Shown piece after piece: positions 5,604-55,864 of a DNA stretch of 64,000 nucleotides. Below the pieces are notes generated by a model that was not told the DNA's origin, made no database searches, and was given only the letters and a program-made list of their open reading frames with translations. How positions within the stretch are numbered: the stretch's first letter is position 1; every line of letters begins with the position of its first letter. A program made the position numbers and the translations under genes. This DNA is from a bacterium (lineage in GTDB: Bacteria; DRYD01), in the NCBI GenBank assembly GCA_039630415.1, contig JBCNVB010000011.1:987-64986 (forward strand). Reading direction: 5' to 3'.

Positions 5604-6146
5604 TTATATTGAGTTATATCCGTTCAATATAGCTCTTATTCTTTCTTCTGTTGAGGGGTGTGTTCTAAAATATGGGTGGGTATAGTCTGCGTATACGTTG
5701 TATCTTTTGAGCAGATCTATGAAGGGTTCGAGGGGTAGGTTATACATTTTAAGTGCTCTACCTGCGTAGTAATCAGCTTCTAGTTCCTTTTGTTGGCTAA
5801 ATATATTTGTGGATATGTTCTGTCCACTCATCCATTGGTGAAGGAAAATCTGTGGGACATGGTTTAAAACTTCGTGTGCCCATTCGTGTGCTAGTACTCC
5901 AAATATTGCTTCATAACTTTCATTTTCTACCATCGTTGGATCTATATACACTATTCTTTGCCCAGTGGCCATTGCTCCTAACTGTGTTGGATATACCTGG
6001 ACTATGATAGTTGTTCCATATATGTAGTTTAGCTTTGATGATATGTCTATTAGTTGTTCATTAGTTACTCTTGAGAAACAAGTACTTATCGTTATCAATA
6101 TTGCTAATAATAGTGTTATCACTTTCCTCAATACTTTATACCCCAT
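5604..6146 (-). CDS. Secreted/lipoprotein zinc metalloprotease, M48-like (HExxH)
   Basis: Signal peptide with a possible lipobox (TISTC). HEWAHEVLNH metal-binding motif with a downstream ELEADYYA. Small size is typical of YfgC/HtpX-like peptidase modules. Confidence 0.6.
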   Translation of the reverse strand: MGYKVLRKVITLLLAILITISTCFSRVTNEQLIDISSKLNYIYGTTIIVQVYPTQLGAMATGQRIVYIDPTMVENESYEAIFGVLAHEWAHEVLNHVPQIFLHQWMSGQNISTNIFSQQKELEADYYAGRALKMYNLPLEPFIDLLKRYNVYADYTHPYFRTHPSTEERIRAILNGYNSI

Positions 6147-6193: not shown

Positions 6194-7366
6194 TCATTGA
6201 GCTTCTAGTTTAACCTGTTTTGTTATGCGTTTATTCAATCTTAATAGATGGATTTTAACTATTTCTGAGGGTTTATATTTTTCAAGGGTTTTGTTATAGT
6301 CTATAGTGTTTGTGATTATGTGGTTATCGATAGCTGTAATTATATCACCTTTTTTAATATCTACTTTGTAAGCTGGGCTATCGACTATTACTTCGTTTAC
6401 TATTACTCCATAGGTATTGGATAGTCCTAGGAATCTCATAATTTCTGGTGTTAGGTCGGATACTATGACTCCTAGGTAAGGTCTTATTACTTTTCCGAAT
6501 TTTTCTAGATCGGATATGACTTTTTTAACTTTATTAGAAGCTATTGCAAACCCCAGACCTTGTGCCGTAACTACAACTGCTGTATTTACTCCAACAACTT
6601 TACCTTCTAGATTTATGAGTGGACCTCCTGAATTACCTGGATTTATTGGAGCGTCAGTTTGAATGAGATCCTCTAGATATAAACCTTGCACTTCTAGACT
6701 TCTATTTTTAGCAGATATAACTCCTACAGTAGCACTGTAATCGAATCCATAAGGGTTCCCCACTGCTATTACCCATTCACCTATTTTTAGATCATCTGAG
6801 TTAGCAAATTCTAGAGGTTCAAAATTTTGGGTTGTATTTATTTTTAGTAATGCTAGATCAGTATATTTGTCGGATCCGACAATTGAAGCGGTGTATTTTT
6901 CATTTCTTCCCGGAAAAGTTACATATATTTCTTGAGCTTTTTCTACTACGTGATTATTGGTGATTAGAAACTTTTTTTGATTGTCTATAATGAATCCAGA
7001 ACCTAATCCCTGGTTTTTGAACATTTTTTCCCATTCTTTACCAAAGAAGTATTTGAATAGTTCATCCCATTCTTTAGACCATGGAGTTCCTGAGTTTACT
7101 ACTATATCTATTCTGGCTACACTTTTTGTAACTTTTTCTATGACCTTAACAAATGTTTTATCATCCGCATCCTTTATCACTACATTCTGTTGATAGATTA
7201 CTTTTTGGGTTTGTAACTGTGTTTGTTGCTGCTGTAAGTTCTGTGTTTGAGTATTTGGGGATAAAAAGTTATATGTTATTAGTGATCCTGTTATTCCACC
7301 TAATGTAGCACCAATAAAAATCGATATTATCATTACCAAAAATAGGTTCTTATTCATATTAATCAA
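6194..7366 (-). CDS. htrA: HtrA/DegP-family serine protease with one PDZ domain
   Basis: TNNHVV (His), TDLALLK (Asp), GNSGGPL (Ser) and a C-terminal PDZ-like segment (GVIVNEVIVDSPAYKVDIKKGDIITAIDN). Confidence 0.9.
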   Translation of the reverse strand: MINMNKNLFLVMIISIFIGATLGGITGSLITYNFLSPNTQTQNLQQQQTQLQTQKVIYQQNVVIKDADDKTFVKVIEKVTKSVARIDIVVNSGTPWSKEWDELFKYFFGKEWEKMFKNQGLGSGFIIDNQKKFLITNNHVVEKAQEIYVTFPGRNEKYTASIVGSDKYTDLALLKINTTQNFEPLEFANSDDLKIGEWVIAVGNPYGFDYSATVGVISAKNRSLEVQGLYLEDLIQTDAPINPGNSGGPLINLEGKVVGVNTAVVVTAQGLGFAIASNKVKKVISDLEKFGKVIRPYLGVIVSDLTPEIMRFLGLSNTYGVIVNEVIVDSPAYKVDIKKGDIITAIDNHIITNTIDYNKTLEKYKPSEIVKIHLLRLNKRITKQVKLEAQ

Positions 7367-13606: not shown

Positions 13607-16600
13607 GTGAGGAATTTCTTATTCGTTTTAGTAGGTATACTTTTGTTCATTTATAGTGTTAGCGTAAGTTCTTTTGGATTTGAGTATTCTATTATTGGGC
13701 CTTCTAAAGTTTCTAACTTGAAGAACATTCGATATAGGGTCTTAATATTTTCAAATGATGATAAAAAGTTAATTCCGATAAAGATTTATTACAAAGATAA
13801 GTTGATTTATCAAAAAATGACTGCTGAAGGGGTTAATGTAAATCTTGACTTATCTAGATTTCATGAGTCAGGTAATGAGATTGAATTAAACTTTAGAATT
13901 GATAGAACTGATAATAGGGTTAAGGTTTTATATGATAGACCTATGAAGGCTTTTGTATTAACTGATAAACCTTTATACCAACCTGGCCAAACTGTATATA
14001 TTAAATCTGTTGTTTTTGAGGATAATAAACCTAGTAACTCTGAAGTAGAGTTAGTTATTCAGGATCCTAAATCGAATACGATATTTCATAAGTTTATTAA
14101 ATTGAAGGGTGGAGCTTTTTTTGAACGATTTAATCTTTCTACACTGGTTATTCATGGGAAATATAGCCTGGTTCTTAGGAAAGGTAGTACAGTTTTGGCA
14201 TCTACTAGTTTTGAAGTAAAAAAGTATACTCTTCCTAAGTTTAAGATAGACTTTGGTTTTATCAAGGAACCCAAAATTTTACTTGTAGGAGATAGTTATG
14301 CTTGTAGAATTGATTGTTCTTATTTTTTTGGGAAGAAGGTAAATGGTGCAAAAGTTACGGTTGATTTTTATTCCTTTGATGCTGGCTTTAACAAGATTTA
14401 TTCAATTGAAGGTGTTACAAATGATCAAGGTATTTTTAATTTCAATTTGAAAATACCTGATTACTTAACTGGTATTCAAGCAAATAAAGCCATTGTTAAG
14501 ATTGATATAAGGGTACAGGATAAGGCTAAGCAAATAGAACATTTATCCAAAATTTTTGAAGTTTATAAAGAGCCAATTAGTGCTTACGTTGTTCCTTCGA
14601 ATAATCCTATAGTTGGATTGGAAAATAAGTTTTATTTGGTTGTAAGTTATGCTAATGGTAAGGTAGGTAAGTTCAGGGTTAAATTTGATAAGCCTTTTAA
14701 AAAAGAGTTTAACCTAGATAGTGGATTTGCAGAGTTTTCGTATAAACCAACTTCGAATTATGAAGAATTTTCGTTTGAAGTTACTGATTTGTATGGTACC
14801 AAGAAAAATTTCGCAAGTGTGGTTTATCCTTCTCAAGAAGATGGAGTTTTGATTTTTAGGGATAAAGCAAGTTATCTGGTTGGAGAAAAGTTAGTTTTTG
14901 ATTTGTATTCTAGTGATTCGCGTTGGGTTTATCTAGATTTCTATGTAAGAAATGAAGGTAGTTATAGAACTGTTTGGAGTGATTCAGTTTTCTTGCAAAA
15001 GGGTAAAAAGGTGCCATATAGTTTGACTTTACAACCGGATTTCAAAGGTGTTTTAGCGTTAAATGTTTATTTTCTAAATCAGCGGGGTAACATAGTTTGG
15101 AATTCAAAAACTTTTATTGTTCAGGATCCTTCTGAAGTTAATATCAAGGTTAGTAAGAATAAGGATGTTTACCGTGTTAGAGATAGGTTGGAAATGGATA
15201 TAGTTGTTGACAGTAAATCAAAGGTTTTTGTAGATATAGTTGATGAAGCTGTTTTGTATTTGTCTCGTACTGAGCCAGAGCTATTAAAGTTGTATTTAGC
15301 CTTAGAAAAAGAATTATTAGAGCCGAAATATGAGATTCACTCTATTGAAGGGATTATTCTTGAAAAAAGGGATGATCTGCTAAAGGTTTTATTGGATAAA
15401 TCTGATCTTGAGAATTTGAATTACCAGTATGGGCATCCTATAGGTTTGAACGTTATAAATACTATGGAGATAAAAACCAAGAAGACTTACAAAATACTTG
15501 AGGATCTTTACCGTAAGTGTTATAACTTTTATGTTTCTAATCTTAGATATCCAGAAAGTTTTAGGGAGTTGGGATTAGTTCCGAGTCAATATGAGGATCC
15601 CTGGGGAACATATATAAAGATTGTTTTGAAGCGTAAAGATTACATAGAACTGCGCAGTGCAGGAATGGACAGAAAATTTGGTACTTCTGATGATATTTTT
15701 TATCCTGGTTATGTGTTTACGGATGGTTGGTTTGTTAGGGGTGGGGTAGTTTTTGGTGAATTCCAGCAAAGGTTTGCTGTAGCTAAACAATCTGATGAAT
15801 CTGGGCGTATTCGATCAGATGCTAGTAAACCTGAGGCTTATATTGTTAGAGAGTATTTTCCTGAAACGTTTTACAGTGATCTTATTGAGGTTGATAAGTC
15901 ATATAGGCTGTCTTTGACTTTACCTGATAGTATTACAAACTGGAAAGCTATTTTCTGGGCTTTTTCGGAGTCGGGTAAGATTGGATATAAGAATGTTGAT
16001 ATTACAGTATTTCAGAAATTTTTTGTAGATGTAAATAACCCCTTGTATTTGACGAAAGGTGATGAAATTTCTTTGCCAATAGTGGTTTATAATTACACTG
16101 ATAAGCAATTAAATGTAAAGATAGAATTGGAATTAAGGGATTGGTTTGAATTATTGGATGATAGGGTTAAGAGTGTGACTTTACAAGCTAATAGTAATAG
16201 TTCCGTTTATTTTAGAATAAAAGCTAAAAAGATAGGGGTTCATGATTTAATTGTTTATGCTTCTTCAGGGGAGTTGAAGGATGCCATAAAGAAAGCCATG
16301 GAAGTTATTCCTGATGGGTTTATGGTTCAAGACAATAGGTCGTTGTATGTAAGTTCGCAGTATGAAGGTAGTTTTGACATTCCTGCTAGTAGTATAGATG
16401 GTTCGTCTAGAGCTTATATATGTGTATATCCTAGTTTTTCTTCTCAACTTCTTAATGGGTTAGATAAGTTGTTAGCTATGCCTTTTGGGTGTTTTGAGCA
16501 AACTTCATCCATTAATTATCCAAATGTTTTGATTTTGAAGTATTTAAGAGCTAAGGGTGTGGTAAATCCTTCTATAGAGGCAAGAGCTCAGTACTATATA

Positions 16601-17941
16601 GGTATTGGTTATCAGAGATTATTGACTTTTGAGGTTGAAGGTGGTGGATTTTCTTGGTTTGGAGATAAACCTGCAAATAAGGTTTTAACCGCTTTTGGAC
16701 TTATGCAGTTTAAAGATATGAAGCAAGTTCATTTTGTTGATCCAAATCTTATACAAAGAACTGTTAAGTTTTTATTTGATAATCAGAATTCTGATGGATC
16801 TTGGGAACCGGACAAAAACTATATTCATCAAGAAACGTGGCAAAATATTCAAAGTAAAAAGTTAACTGTGACGTGTTATATTCTTATGTCTCTTCTTGAG
16901 AACGATCCTAACATATGGAAAGTTTATGAATCTAGGATTGACAAGTCATTAGATTTCATTTATCAGGGTGCTAGAGGAAAGTATAAGGAGTTAGATAACT
17001 ATACGTTAGGATTAATTTTGAATATTCTAAGTTATTCAAAAGATAGATCCAAGGATTATTTAGATTTTGGACAAGATTTGATTGAATATTTGGTTAGTAA
17101 GGCGGTAAGACAGGGGGGAATGTGCTATTGGAAAGGTAGTGTAGAGACGTTATTCTTTGGGTATGACAAAGCTAGTGATGTAGAGACAACGTCGATAATA
17201 GCTATGGGTATGATTAGATGGAATAAACTTGATATTGCTTTTGAAGCTGTAAAGTATTTAATAAGTTCTAAAGATTCGAGGGGTATATGGTACTCTACTC
17301 AGCCAACTATAATGGCGCTAAAAGCTATAACTAATTTTGATACTGTATCTAAAAATTTAAACCAACCAAATAAGGTAGAAATTATGGTAAATGAACAGGT
17401 ACTAAGTGTTAATTTTTCCGAAGATGATTTAGCTTATAAGATTATTGATATAACCTCTTTATTAGTGAAAGGCAAAAATTTTCTCAAAGTTAAGTCTAAG
17501 AATCCTGTTATTTTTGATGTGAATTATAGTTACTATTTACCTTTCCAGTTTTATACTCCAGTATACGATTTGTTGGATATAGTCGTTGAGTACGATAGGA
17601 AAGAACTAAAGGTTAATGATAAAATAGTAGTAAAAGTAAGGATAATGAATAGAAGTAATAAGGTTTTAAATATGGTAGTAGTTGATTTAGGTATTCCGCC
17701 TGGTTTTTCGGTTGATTTATCAAAATTAAGATCTAACGAAAAAGTTAAAAATGTTGAGAATACAGATAGACAGGTTGTAGTATATTTTGATAGGATAGAT
17801 TCTGGAGAGAAGATAAATTTAGAATATGATATTGTATCTCTTTATCCTTTGAGGGTCAAGATACCTCAGAGTAAGATTTATGAGTATTATAATCCAGAGT
17901 TGACTGTTTTAAAGGATGGAGATGTTATAAATGTTAGATAA
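13607..17941 (+). CDS. Alpha-2-macroglobulin family protein (secreted, thioester-type) with an embedded T2SS-G-like domain
   Basis: Signal peptide. VREYFPETF...LPDSITNWKA...FQKFFVDVNNPLYLTKGDEISLPIVVYNY aligns by eye with the post-bait segment of A2M/C3 proteins. Thioester-type motif PFGCFEQ at nt 16490-16501. Alpha-helical TED-like region and a C-terminal receptor-binding-like domain. GTG start. Confidence 0.85.
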   Translation: MRNFLFVLVGILLFIYSVSVSSFGFEYSIIGPSKVSNLKNIRYRVLIFSNDDKKLIPIKIYYKDKLIYQKMTAEGVNVNLDLSRFHESGNEIELNFRIDRTDNRVKVLYDRPMKAFVLTDKPLYQPGQTVYIKSVVFEDNKPSNSEVELVIQDPKSNTIFHKFIKLKGGAFFERFNLSTLVIHGKYSLVLRKGSTVLASTSFEVKKYTLPKFKIDFGFIKEPKILLVGDSYACRIDCSYFFGKKVNGAKVTVDFYSFDAGFNKIYSIEGVTNDQGIFNFNLKIPDYLTGIQANKAIVKIDIRVQDKAKQIEHLSKIFEVYKEPISAYVVPSNNPIVGLENKFYLVVSYANGKVGKFRVKFDKPFKKEFNLDSGFAEFSYKPTSNYEEFSFEVTDLYGTKKNFASVVYPSQEDGVLIFRDKASYLVGEKLVFDLYSSDSRWVYLDFYVRNEGSYRTVWSDSVFLQKGKKVPYSLTLQPDFKGVLALNVYFLNQRGNIVWNSKTFIVQDPSEVNIKVSKNKDVYRVRDRLEMDIVVDSKSKVFVDIVDEAVLYLSRTEPELLKLYLALEKELLEPKYEIHSIEGIILEKRDDLLKVLLDKSDLENLNYQYGHPIGLNVINTMEIKTKKTYKILEDLYRKCYNFYVSNLRYPESFRELGLVPSQYEDPWGTYIKIVLKRKDYIELRSAGMDRKFGTSDDIFYPGYVFTDGWFVRGGVVFGEFQQRFAVAKQSDESGRIRSDASKPEAYIVREYFPETFYSDLIEVDKSYRLSLTLPDSITNWKAIFWAFSESGKIGYKNVDITVFQKFFVDVNNPLYLTKGDEISLPIVVYNYTDKQLNVKIELELRDWFELLDDRVKSVTLQANSNSSVYFRIKAKKIGVHDLIVYASSGELKDAIKKAMEVIPDGFMVQDNRSLYVSSQYEGSFDIPASSIDGSSRAYICVYPSFSSQLLNGLDKLLAMPFGCFEQTSSINYPNVLILKYLRAKGVVNPSIEARAQYYIGIGYQRLLTFEVEGGGFSWFGDKPANKVLTAFGLMQFKDMKQVHFVDPNLIQRTVKFLFDNQNSDGSWEPDKNYIHQETWQNIQSKKLTVTCYILMSLLENDPNIWKVYESRIDKSLDFIYQGARGKYKELDNYTLGLILNILSYSKDRSKDYLDFGQDLIEYLVSKAVRQGGMCYWKGSVETLFFGYDKASDVETTSIIAMGMIRWNKLDIAFEAVKYLISSKDSRGIWYSTQPTIMALKAITNFDTVSKNLNQPNKVEIMVNEQVLSVNFSEDDLAYKIIDITSLLVKGKNFLKVKSKNPVIFDVNYSYYLPFQFYTPVYDLLDIVVEYDRKELKVNDKIVVKVRIMNRSNKVLNMVVVDLGIPPGFSVDLSKLRSNEKVKNVENTDRQVVVYFDRIDSGEKINLEYDIVSLYPLRVKIPQSKIYEYYNPELTVLKDGDVINVR
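15473..15709 (+). other. GspG/PulG-type pseudopilin soluble-domain module inside the A2M ORF
   Basis: KTKKTYKILEDLYRKCYNFYVSNLRYPESFRELGLVPSQYEDPWGTYIKIVLKRKDYIELRSAGMDRKFGTSDDIFYPG follows the GspG pattern: helix..YP.., then DPWG.xY, then S.G.D..GT.DDI. Confidence 0.6.
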
Positions 17942-17995: not shown

Positions 17996-18619
17996 ATGAG
18001 AAAGGCTTTTTCTTTTGTTGAGATTCTAGTAGTAATAGCTATAGTAGCTATTGTTACTGCTGCAATATTCTTAAATTTCAATAGCAAAAATAATGCTATT
18101 TTGAGATCTGATGCTGAGAAGATATTTAATTTTCTAAAAAATATGCAAGTTGCAGCTACTAAATTGTCTCCTATGATAACCTTAGTTCAGAATATTAGTA
18201 ATCCAACACTAATGATAGGTGGTTTACCCAATAACCCTAATAGATTTGAAATGAGATTTTTATCACTAAGAATTGTAAATCAAACTTTTGTGAATGTCAA
18301 TACTCATCTATTTAATTATGCTACTTTTCAGGAATTAAATCCTAAAGTGAATGTTACTGCTAATGTTATCCCTCAACAAAGATTTAACTTATATGCAAAT
18401 TTAAATAACGAGTACCCAATATCTTTGGTAGGGATTATTTTTACTACTGATCGAAGGAGAGTTTTAATAGGTTTTAGGACTGATGGTAGTATTGCTTTGC
18501 CAACTAATATCCAGGGAGGAAATATGGATATAAATATATCAATGAATGGAGTAAATCGTAGGTATATGATAAGATTACAGGATAGACAACTTAATTTTCA
18601 GCTTCAGGTTACTAGGTAG
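17996..18619 (+). CDS. Prepilin-type N-terminal cleavage/methylation domain protein (GspH/FimT-like minor pseudopilin)
   Basis: MRKAFSFVEILVVIAIVAIVTAAIFL is a class III signal with the conserved E at +5; Ala replaces the usual Gly before Phe. It is followed by a FimT/GspH-like helix (LRSDAEKIFNFLKNMQVAA). The SD is GGAGAGGGTG. Confidence 0.6.
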   Translation: MRKAFSFVEILVVIAIVAIVTAAIFLNFNSKNNAILRSDAEKIFNFLKNMQVAATKLSPMITLVQNISNPTLMIGGLPNNPNRFEMRFLSLRIVNQTFVNVNTHLFNYATFQELNPKVNVTANVIPQQRFNLYANLNNEYPISLVGIIFTTDRRRVLIGFRTDGSIALPTNIQGGNMDINISMNGVNRRYMIRLQDRQLNFQLQVTR

Positions 18620-54505: not shown

Positions 54506-55864
54506 TTACTTAACTTTTAAAGCTTTATTTATCAGCGAGGATATTAAAACAGGATTAGATTTTTTCGAACATTTGCAAAGTACTATTTTGCTATTTTCAT
54601 AATTAGATAGTAGATAGAAAGAATTCTGCGTTTCTATGATAATGTTATTAGGTTTTTCTGTAAAGAAGTTTGAAAACATTTCAAGGTCTCTATATAGGGC
54701 TACTATTGCAGTGATACTAAATTCATCCAGATGTTTGTTTTGACTATACTCTAATTCTTCAGTTTCTAAATTTATAATATAAGTTTCTTCGATTGGTGGT
54801 ATATTTGAAAGCCTATTCATTATTTCCTGTACTGGCATTAATATGTTAACCTCCTTCTCTACTCCTTGATGTTTTCCCTGCATTTGTTCAATTTCTTGTA
54901 ATTGTTTTTGTATACTTTCCTGGTATTGTATATCTTCTGATGCTTGTATGACTTCATGTTGTTGTATGTTTTCTGATGGTGTAGTTTCTTCTGTTTGGGT
55001 AGTTTCTTCTATTTGAATAGTTTCATCTGTATGAATGGTTTCTTCTGTATGAATGGTTTCTTCTGTTTGAGTAGTTTCTTCTGTTTGAATGGTTTCTTCT
55101 GCTTGGGTAGTTTCTTCTATTTGAATAGTTTCTTCTGCTTGAGTAGTTTCTTCTGTTTGAATAGTTTCTTCTGTTTGGGTAACTTGTTCTAATTCTGTAA
55201 TTTGTTGTGATTGTATGATTTGTTCTAGTTCCTTTGTTTGTATATTTTCTTGTGTTTGTGTATCTTGGCTTTGTTGATATTCTTGGTCTATTTCTGTGAT
55301 TAATTCTTCTATTTCTTGTATTTGTTTTTCTATATCTTGTTGGGTATCTTGTATTTGTTGGTTATTTGTTTGATCAGAATCATCTATTTTTTTTTCCTCT
55401 TGTGATTGATTTTTCTCCAATTCTAGTTCCAATTTTACATCTTCGGGTCTATACTTTATGATTGATTCAAGTGTATCTAACAGATTATCTTCTTCTAGTT
55501 TTTTTCTTAGAAACATTGGTAGGTAGCTTAACAAATCTTCTTCTGTAAGTTGTATTAAATAGATTACTGCTTCAAGTTCTTTATACTCATCGAATAATGC
55601 TTCGACGATTATTCCGTTTTTGACTACTATTTTACCTGTATGACTTCCATGACTAAGTAGTAGTTCTATTTGATTAGCTTTAGGTTTGAGTTTTTCTATA
55701 GTTTTTATAAGGCTTTCTCTTTCCAAGTCAACAAAAGTACTGATGTTTTCTTGCTTTTTTGCTGTTTGAGTAAGTTTTTGCTTATCAGATACGGGTGGTT
55801 TAACATATTCTGGCTTTATGTAGAATTTTTCTCCTTTTGGATTTTTTTGTTCAAATCCTTCCAT
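54506..55864 (-). CDS. DUF4388(PATAN)-like N-domain + acidic Q/E/T repeat linker + Roadblock/LC7-like C-domain protein
   Basis: N-terminus HTGKIVVKNGIIVEALFDEYKELEAVIYLIQL (DUF4388-like). Central TEETIQ/TEETTQ hexapeptide array. The C-terminus (IINLETEELEYSQNKHLDEFSITAIVALYRDLEMF...) resembles Roadblock/MglB. Confidence 0.45.
   Translation of the reverse strand: MEGFEQKNPKGEKFYIKPEYVKPPVSDKQKLTQTAKKQENISTFVDLERESLIKTIEKLKPKANQIELLLSHGSHTGKIVVKNGIIVEALFDEYKELEAVIYLIQLTEEDLLSYLPMFLRKKLEEDNLLDTLESIIKYRPEDVKLELELEKNQSQEEKKIDDSDQTNNQQIQDTQQDIEKQIQEIEELITEIDQEYQQSQDTQTQENIQTKELEQIIQSQQITELEQVTQTEETIQTEETTQAEETIQIEETTQAEETIQTEETTQTEETIHTEETIHTDETIQIEETTQTEETTPSENIQQHEVIQASEDIQYQESIQKQLQEIEQMQGKHQGVEKEVNILMPVQEIMNRLSNIPPIEETYIINLETEELEYSQNKHLDEFSITAIVALYRDLEMFSNFFTEKPNNIIIETQNSFYLLSNYENSKIVLCKCSKKSNPVLISSLINKALKVK
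54980..55177 (-). repeat. 11 tandem copies of an 18-bp unit (plus-strand consensus GTAGTTTCTTCTGTTTGA), in frame inside the 54506-55864 gene
   Basis: I counted units at 54980, 54998, 55016 ... 55160, each differing by 0-4 nt. They encode (T/A/I)(E/D)ET(I/T)(Q/H/P). Degenerate copies flank both sides. Confidence 0.9.

Follow-up and report, generated by a model that had tools for sequence, protein, structure and literature searches.

The bacterial DNA stretch analysed here (64,000 nucleotides (nt) of contig JBCNVB010000011.1, GenBank assembly GCA_039630415.1; hereafter the window) encodes an alpha-2-macroglobulin (A2M) family protein of 1444 amino acids (aa). From positions 15473 to 15871 on the plus strand, the translation reads KTKKTYKILEDLYRK...VREYFPETF, with residue 623 starting at nt 15473. 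An initial annotation described this segment as a GspG-type soluble domain lacking the hydrophobic pilin helix and sitting at the bait position, and the coordinates, translation and motifs that it quoted (YP, DPWG, S.G.D..GT.DDI, VREYFPETF, LPDSITNWKA) were all present in the 1444-aa open reading frame (ORF). Profile, fold and topology bear this description out, and indicate that residues ~615-702 (15449..15712, plus strand) almost certainly form a GspG-fold, T2SSG-like soluble module in the bait-region slot of the A2M. Neither the protein family nor the way it generally works is new, but specialists would be surprised to meet a pilin fold in the slot that holds the anaphylatoxin (ANA) domain of complement.

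With the single window sequence, the best Pfam match of the segment was T2SSG (PF08334), at a sub-threshold E = 0.056 (14.0 bits versus a gathering cut-off of 21), and the best match in the Protein Data Bank (PDB) was a GspG chain at E = 1.4. An NCBIfam scan of residues 592-784, an excerpt that takes in the insert, gave zero matches, and a search of the 164-aa insert alone against an index of 5.8 billion proteins retrieved nothing, because the word index lacked the sensitivity needed for a lineage so divergent and AT-rich. Homologs were obtained instead with the full-length A2M as query and by an exhaustive profile search. The results showed that each of the 18 closest A2Ms has kept the module, even where overall identity falls to ~30%. 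We aligned 17 orthologous inserts from the clade of the window protein into a profile, which was run against all PDB sequences. The profile matched 3G20 (GspG of enterohaemorrhagic Escherichia coli, 4.1e-6), 29JD (2.8e-4), PulG 1T92 (1.2e-3) and 5WDA (4.2e-3), and its top 8 PDB matches were exclusively major pseudopilins from type II secretion systems (T2SS; GspG, PulG, EpsG and XcpT). The alignment spanned GspG residues 21-113 (~70 profile positions), which is nearly the entire soluble domain, with the helix and the DPWG motif included. This motif, common to major pseudopilins, lies at 15596..15607 (plus strand); its D664 and W666 were invariant in the 17-sequence alignment, as were S684, G686, D695 and D696. 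The search against T2SSG that the initial annotation had proposed as a check therefore fell short with the single sequence (E = 0.056), while the 17-insert profile matched GspG in the PDB significantly (4.1e-6).

The module was also modelled with AlphaFold2 (AF2) from the insert alignment. The model reached a predicted local distance difference test score (pLDDT) of 91.8 and a predicted template-modelling (pTM) score of 0.82, and comprised one long helix, two short helices and a three-stranded sheet. In a Foldseek search of this model against the PDB, the top 13 matches were GspG, EpsG, PulG and XcpT chains, followed by type IV pilins, and the best match was again 3G20 (template-modelling (TM) score 0.79, probability 1.00). 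A macroglobulin beta-sandwich, which the initial annotation had named as the competing outcome, was not what the prediction returned; the predicted fold was that of GspG. As a third, independent line, segments at the same slot of A2Ms of ~2000 aa exceeded the Pfam T2SSG gathering score (28-42 bits; P0073, P0077, P0071 and P0057), whereas those of the single-copy clade of the window protein stayed below it, and the profile built from the window clade alone matched these T2SSG-scoring segments.

These results bear on the idea that the segment is a helical/beta elaboration of the bait insert, unrelated to pseudopilins, which by chance contains a short motif resembling a calcium loop (G-x-D-x6-D-D). 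The sub-threshold single-sequence scores would fit such an idea, as would the presence of G-x-D-x(6)-D-D in unrelated proteins (PMC3396595) and of long repeat proteins that match the loop alone. However, the profile alignment extends beyond the loop over ~70 positions including the helix and DPWG, the fold match covers the whole domain and retrieves only pseudopilins and then type IV pilins, and homologous copies exceed the Pfam gathering score, so that chance resemblance is effectively refuted and we give it hardly any credence. A match resting solely on the short motif was rejected for the window module on the same ground, since the profile and fold alignments cover the whole domain. Separately, several very long repeat proteins, among them P0121 (4137 aa, 26 stretches), P0122, P0124 and P0135, matched only profile positions ~63-88, that is, the Ca-loop G-x-D-G...D-D. 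These matches fit a PERCAL-type Ca2+ motif that is widespread as a short repeat, independently of the pilin fold.

In structures of the A2M family, LNK and the bait region make up one uninterrupted insertion within the macroglobulin (MG) domain MG6, and C3, C4 and C5 carry an ANA domain in place of the bait (PMC9156758, PMC9352918). The segment C-terminal to the scissile site (BR-C or alpha'NT), with a conserved Arg and Phe, runs through a channel formed by MG2, MG3 and LNK, and its retraction after cleavage sets off the conformational change (PMC9156758, PMC9352918). The slot of the window protein was found to run from LNK-like helices (residues 553-614) through the module (615-702) and a linker (703-747) to a plug, followed by the rest of MG6 and MG7. 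The LNK-like helical region (15263..15448, plus strand), delimited by alignment and by an AF2 model of the fragment 405-870, of which we used the pLDDT and the secondary structure, is conserved over its first ~25 residues (EPELLKLYLxLEKELLEPKYEIH), while its last ~15 are variable, gappy and low in pLDDT. In this fragment model, the module had a pLDDT of 86-89 and the MG domains 74-92. The plug, REYFPETFY (residues 748-756; 15848..15874, plus strand), aligned as the equivalent of BR-C/alpha'NT, and in its R748-E-Y-F751-P-E-T the R, F, P, E and T were invariant.

Between module and plug lies a 45-aa linker (residues 703-747; 15713..15847, plus strand) that was the most variable part of the region, with a column entropy of 2.7-2.8 bits compared with ~0.7 in the flanks. 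Its pLDDT was 26-37 without secondary structure in the fragment model, which predicts it to be disordered, and the distance from the module DDI to the plug ranged from 44 to 74 aa in relatives. Because this hypervariable, predicted-disordered stretch is present between module and plug, the module, as judged from alignment and model, stands ahead of the bait and does not replace it. The initial annotation had left both options, a bait preceded or replaced by the module, and only the former agrees with the linker. On the same evidence, the linker is probably the better candidate for the bait proper. Full-protein alignments to all solved A2M-family structures broke at the slot and restarted at ~737-745, and the distance from VDE to the plug was 203 aa in the window protein versus 84-145 aa in the retrieved vertebrate A2M/PZP/A2ML1-like proteins. 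Topologically, and by analogy, the module is at the position of ANA in C3, C4 and C5.

The protein around this slot has the layout of a thioester A2M. The ORF (13607..17941, plus strand; open reading frame plus Pfam) starts with GTG and is identical (100%) to the public protein P0001 from a metagenome-assembled genome, which NCBI names 'alpha-2-macroglobulin family protein'; the closest named relatives belong to Candidatus Calescibacterium, at 53% identity. The N-terminus reads as a Sec-type signal peptide (13607..13678, plus strand) with the hydrophobic core LFVLVGILLFIYSVSVSSF and a maximum Kyte-Doolittle hydropathy (19-residue window) of 2.34, and no lipobox cysteine was seen in it. Pfam assigned MG2 (residues 114-204, E = 2e-14), MG3 (206-283, E = 2e-5), A2M_BRD (418-552, E = 7e-11; 14858..15262), A2M (the MG7 region; 762-841, E = 5e-22; 15890..16129), TED_complement (the thioester domain; 949-1243, E = 5e-44; 16451..17335) and A2M_recep (the receptor-binding, MG8-type C-terminal domain; 1355-1432, E = 1e-13; 17669..17902), with all six above the curated cut-offs and the nucleotide spans on the plus strand. 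A2M_BRD, which corresponds to MG5 and the N-terminal half of MG6, was a beta-sandwich with a pLDDT of 85-92 in the fragment model. Residues 553-761 received no Pfam assignment above cut-off. The thioester motif GCFEQ (residues 961-965, C962...Q965; 16487..16501, plus strand) was kept throughout the clade (P0001-P0050). From these motifs, the protein is predicted to be a Sec-exported thioester protease trap of the metazoan-like A2M/CD109/TEP type.

We next considered whether the module could itself be a pseudopilin. Pfam found no N_methyl match anywhere in the A2M, no G|F-T-L-x-E cleavage/N-methylation site was present upstream of the module, and no hydrophobic alpha1N preceded it, the maximum hydropathy in residues 554-658 being 0.35 versus 2.34 in the signal peptide. 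In the profile alignment, the module was ~20 residues shorter than GspG in the alpha-beta region, including the alpha3-beta1 loop, which is the secretion-specificity determinant in PulG/OutG (PMC13081927). Because the leader, the N-methylation motif and alpha1N are missing and the alpha-beta region is shortened, the module is a pilin-fold domain and its identity as a pseudopilin is ruled out. The role of polymerisation handle that the initial annotation had considered is very unlikely for the same lack of leader and alpha1N.

The exhaustive profile search of 1.84 billion representatives returned 5,679 proteins at E <= 0.001, and a prepilin leader was found in none of the 149 best non-window representative matches. 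Outside the A2Ms, the representative matches included Sec-secreted proteins built from 2-4 modules in tandem, as well as P0129 (1977 aa), a Kelch-repeat protein with four T2SSG-like copies (139 bits). P0123, P0125, P0128 and P0133 carried leaderless T2SSG-like domains in non-pilin proteins; several of these were small, with T2SSG as the only Pfam family above cut-off, and P0125 and P0128 started with Sec signal peptides. Since leaderless, tandem modules recur in A2Ms, Sec-secreted proteins and Kelch proteins, the window module falls within a branch of the T2SSG fold that has no leader, does not polymerise and behaves as a mobile extracytoplasmic domain, and its nearest relatives are these tandem modules, not genuine pseudopilins. 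The soluble domain of GspG has thus had a second life as a mobile, non-polymerising module. For annotation, a PF08334 match alone is no proof of a pseudopilin or a T2SS, because leaderless T2SSG-like domains occur in tandem in non-pilin proteins.

The module also retains the calcium site of its pseudopilin relatives in sequence. In GspG 3G20, Ca2+ is bound by the loop P114-G-P-D117-G-V119-P-N-T122-E-D124-D125 (PMC3396595), and the ligands in PulG/OutG are D117, S/T122, D125 and possibly D124, together with the backbone of residues 114 and 119 (PMC13081927). Without Ca2+, PulG unfolds or becomes disordered and is degraded in vivo (PMC13081927). By alignment to GspG, the putative Ca2+-binding loop of the module is SAGMDRKFGTSDDI (residues 684-697; 15656..15697, plus strand). 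Its D688, T693 and D696 (plus D695) aligned with D117, T/S122 and D125 (plus D124) of GspG/PulG, so that the side-chain ligands in A685-G-M-D688-R-K690-F-G-T693-S-D695-D696 are identical to those of GspG. Given this identity of ligands, the module likely binds Ca2+.

Copy numbers were determined by three rounds of profile iteration over 120 retrieved A2M homologs. The results revealed one to three copies in 87 of these proteins: three tandem copies in 44, two in a single protein and one in 42, while 33, including all vertebrate proteins, had no detectable module. The architecture is therefore common in environmental bacteria and not rare. CarboxypepD_reg is an extra domain of the three-copy A2Ms, in which the block of highest variability once more stands directly before the plug. 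Pfam flags PF08334 automatically in these proteins in its precomputed domain lists, and no source protein name mentions the module. Literature searches found no relevant paper on a pilin-fold or T2SSG domain in an A2M. The architecture that the initial annotation had not recognised from described A2Ms is accordingly without a describing paper among those found, yet its rarity did not hold; and of the outcome that it had named as unfavourable, a common and already annotated insertion, the frequency (87/120) and the automatic flag apply, while no protein name or paper found mentions it. In seven GCFEQ-type bacterial A2Ms of 1650-1770 aa (P0019, P0020, P0023, P0028, P0029, P0037 and P0049), VDE and the plug are ~350-400 aa apart; the GspG-like module was undetected there even after profile iteration, and the slot is filled by something else.

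Comparison with solved structures placed the window protein closest to metazoan-type A2Ms, the best matches being CD109 (1.2e-61), A2M (8e-61), A2ML1 (5e-60) and TEP1 (~1e-38). It shares with them the Pfam domain set, the CxEQ thioester motif, the R..FPET plug and, immediately upstream of it, a bait that is variable and flexible. It differs in being bacterial and Sec-secreted and in having GCFEQ instead of GCGEQ, and human A2M, A2ML1, CD109 and insect TEP1 have no folded domain in the bait insert and no match to the module. The A2Ms of ~2000 aa, from Acidobacteria, Limnocylindrales and other groups, resemble the window protein in the slot with its homologous module, in the variable linker followed by the plug and in the thioester, but have three copies, CarboxypepD_reg, a slot of ~540 aa and GC[GA]EQ, and share 25-28% identity over about half of the window protein. 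Relative to GspG, PulG, EpsG and XcpT, the module is alike in soluble-domain fold, profile homology, DPWG and Ca2+-loop ligands; it differs from GspG in lacking the leader, the N-methylation site and alpha1N, in being ~20 residues shorter and in lying inside a 1444-aa protein. In the module alignment, no conserved pair of cysteines resembling that of type IV pilins was seen.

Described bacterial A2Ms comprise type I (ECAM/YfhM and Salmonella A2M), which are thioester lipoproteins with a bait region, and the thioester-less type II (YfaS/MagD) (PMC4498604, PMC5764988). The type I proteins are distant from the window protein (4U48, E = 7e-9; YfhM, E = 1e-7; over ~240-250 residues), which unlike them has no lipobox and does not stand beside pbpC or a mag-type operon, its neighbours being recG, an mrp-like gene and der. 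None of the Pfam bacterial-MG families was above cut-off in the window A2M, the only one listed being bMG10 (16.7 bits versus 26.2), and the papers found contain no report of a pilin-fold insert in type I or type II A2Ms.

The closest positional counterpart of the module is the ANA domain of complement. ANA is a disulfide-rich helical bundle, and its fold is unrelated to the alpha/beta pilin fold with a Ca-site. Nevertheless, ANA is an autonomously folding domain of ~80 aa that MG6 holds after LNK and before the alpha'NT plug, which is the same slot as that of the module (PMC9156758). For ANA and the module alike, the cut that activates the protein would be expected directly C-terminal to the folded domain. 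The release of ANA depends on an additional furin cut between LNK and ANA, whereas no such processing is indicated for the window protein, and Pfam detected no extra C-terminal domain of the C345C type beyond A2M_recep. The resemblance is best taken as positional analogy, that is, convergence, and not as homology. The A2M family is a textbook conformational mousetrap whose trigger slot was known to hold a folded domain only in complement, namely ANA. Many bacterial A2Ms of the metazoan-like kind, most of them from uncultured organisms, hold another folded domain there, in the form of one to three leaderless pilin folds with a Ca-site, and this finding is relevant to the old debate about the relationship between the A2Ms of bacteria and those of animals.

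Concerning function, we lean slightly towards a structural role for the module. In this reading it is a structural element rather than a pilin, a stopper or spacer that would be rigid, resistant to proteases and probably stabilised by Ca2+, and that would anchor the N-terminal end of the bait and hold the bait out into solvent, as ANA does topologically. An attacking protease would then cut the exposed linker 703-747; cleavage would let the R..FPET plug retract, and the C962-Q965 thioester would become exposed. The three-copy A2Ms are consistent with such a role, repeating the order in which folded domains are succeeded by the block of highest variability and this by the plug, and a generic structural use of the module is suggested by the leaderless tandem Sec-secreted proteins and the four-copy Kelch proteins. 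Several points weigh against this role. The Ca2+ binding of the module is predicted from its sequence; the window protein has R at the fourth position of the PERCAL motif, where the motif has G, and the first Asp of the Ca loop is N or S in some relatives. Furthermore, the 33 of 120 homologs without a detectable module nevertheless have long slots, so that an A2M of this type can do without the module, and a purely structural role does not explain the choice of a pilin fold or the three copies in some lineages. In any case, the module-bearing A2Ms offer a natural experiment on what a slot domain contributes to the plug-in-channel trigger.

The homology to a major pseudopilin suggests another role, in which the module would bind the T2SS or a type IV filament machine (pseudopilus, secretin or assembly platform) as a docking or targeting handle, either for export of the A2M or for protection of the filament against proteases. 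The A2M gene lies in a neighbourhood of housekeeping genes (ftsK, usp, recG, mrp-like gene, A2M, prepilin-like gene, der, flagellar rod (FlgEFG-family) gene). In keeping with docking, 55 nt downstream of the A2M lies a prepilin-like gene of 207 aa (17996-18619, plus strand), with an N_methyl motif, a GspH-like N-terminus and a globular part without a family match, and the adjacency is repeated in the Ca. Calescibacterium relative at 53% identity (L001 10398-11051). However, a prepilin-like neighbour was absent beside the module-bearing homologs P0007, P0012 and P0017 (31-42% identity), this neighbour had no detectable relation to the module (hhalign probability 0.07%), and the window ORFs that were scanned contained no T2SS or type IV pilus machinery, neither a secretin nor an ATPase nor a platform gene of a gsp/pul-type operon, the prepilin-like gene standing alone. 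For these reasons we took the adjacency to be synteny specific to the lineage rather than a sign of a functional system. A conserved A2M-pilin system built on the adjacent gene was rejected, as none but the closest relative repeats the adjacency and the neighbour has no relationship to the module. The module also lacks alpha1N, which mediates pilin-pilin packing, is ~20 residues short around the loop that confers secretion specificity in PulG/OutG (PMC13081927), and occurs leaderless in unrelated Sec-secreted proteins. The docking handle proposed in the initial annotation thus found no conserved genomic support, and we consider it unlikely. Binding of some other ligand or surface, such as a glycan, an envelope polymer or another protein, would make the module a generic extracytoplasmic unit that tethers the trap or recruits targets independently of the bait mechanics. 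Tandem modules in Sec-secreted proteins of little else and in Kelch-repeat proteins, and a copy number of 1 to 3 among A2Ms, recall binding or adhesion repeats, for which tandem use and variable copy number are typical. Against this, no member has a known ligand, and the module always occupies one internal A2M slot and not a terminus, the usual site of appended binding modules, which makes a binding role rather unlikely.

The module might instead be the sensed substrate itself, either by imitating a pseudopilin and so attracting proteases that degrade pilins, or as a Ca2+-gated bait that unfolds and becomes cleavable at low Ca2+. The disorder and in vivo degradation of PulG without Ca2+ (PMC13081927), the Ca ligand set retained in the module and the variable, low-confidence segments on both of its sides (~600-618 and 703-747) would accord with this. 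Bait regions are, however, typically hypervariable, while the module persists in relatives of only ~30% overall identity and keeps D, W, S, G, D and D invariant; at the canonical bait position before the plug, it is adjoined by a stretch with the classic hypervariability and disorder of a bait; and elsewhere three tandem copies with CarboxypepD_reg resemble a scaffold and not a bait. We therefore regard a conditional bait as improbable, and the decoy substrate considered in the initial annotation is unlikely, given that the module is folded and conserved and that its Ca-site is intact. A related and bolder possibility, to which we attach quite a low probability, is that bacteria independently arrived at a complement-style folded, active domain in the bait slot. 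The module, flanked as it is by two flexible variable segments, could then serve as a Ca2+-gated sensitivity switch that is unfolded and cleavable at low Ca2+, or as an ANA-like excised fragment with a signalling or binding activity of its own. If either were true, environmental A2Ms would be sensors and not passive traps.

Several other features of the window were recorded. Two protease-related ORFs lie ~6-8 kb upstream of the A2M on the minus strand, one encoding an HtrA/DegP-like protease (Trypsin_2 plus PDZ; 6194-7366) and the other resembling an M48 peptidase fragment (5604-6146); no link of either to the A2M was established. Two long ORFs had no Pfam match at E <= 1e-4, namely a 452-aa ORF at 54506-55864 (minus strand) and a 1466-aa orphan ORF at 24707-29107 (plus strand), which is located between a methyltransferase gene and rpsB.

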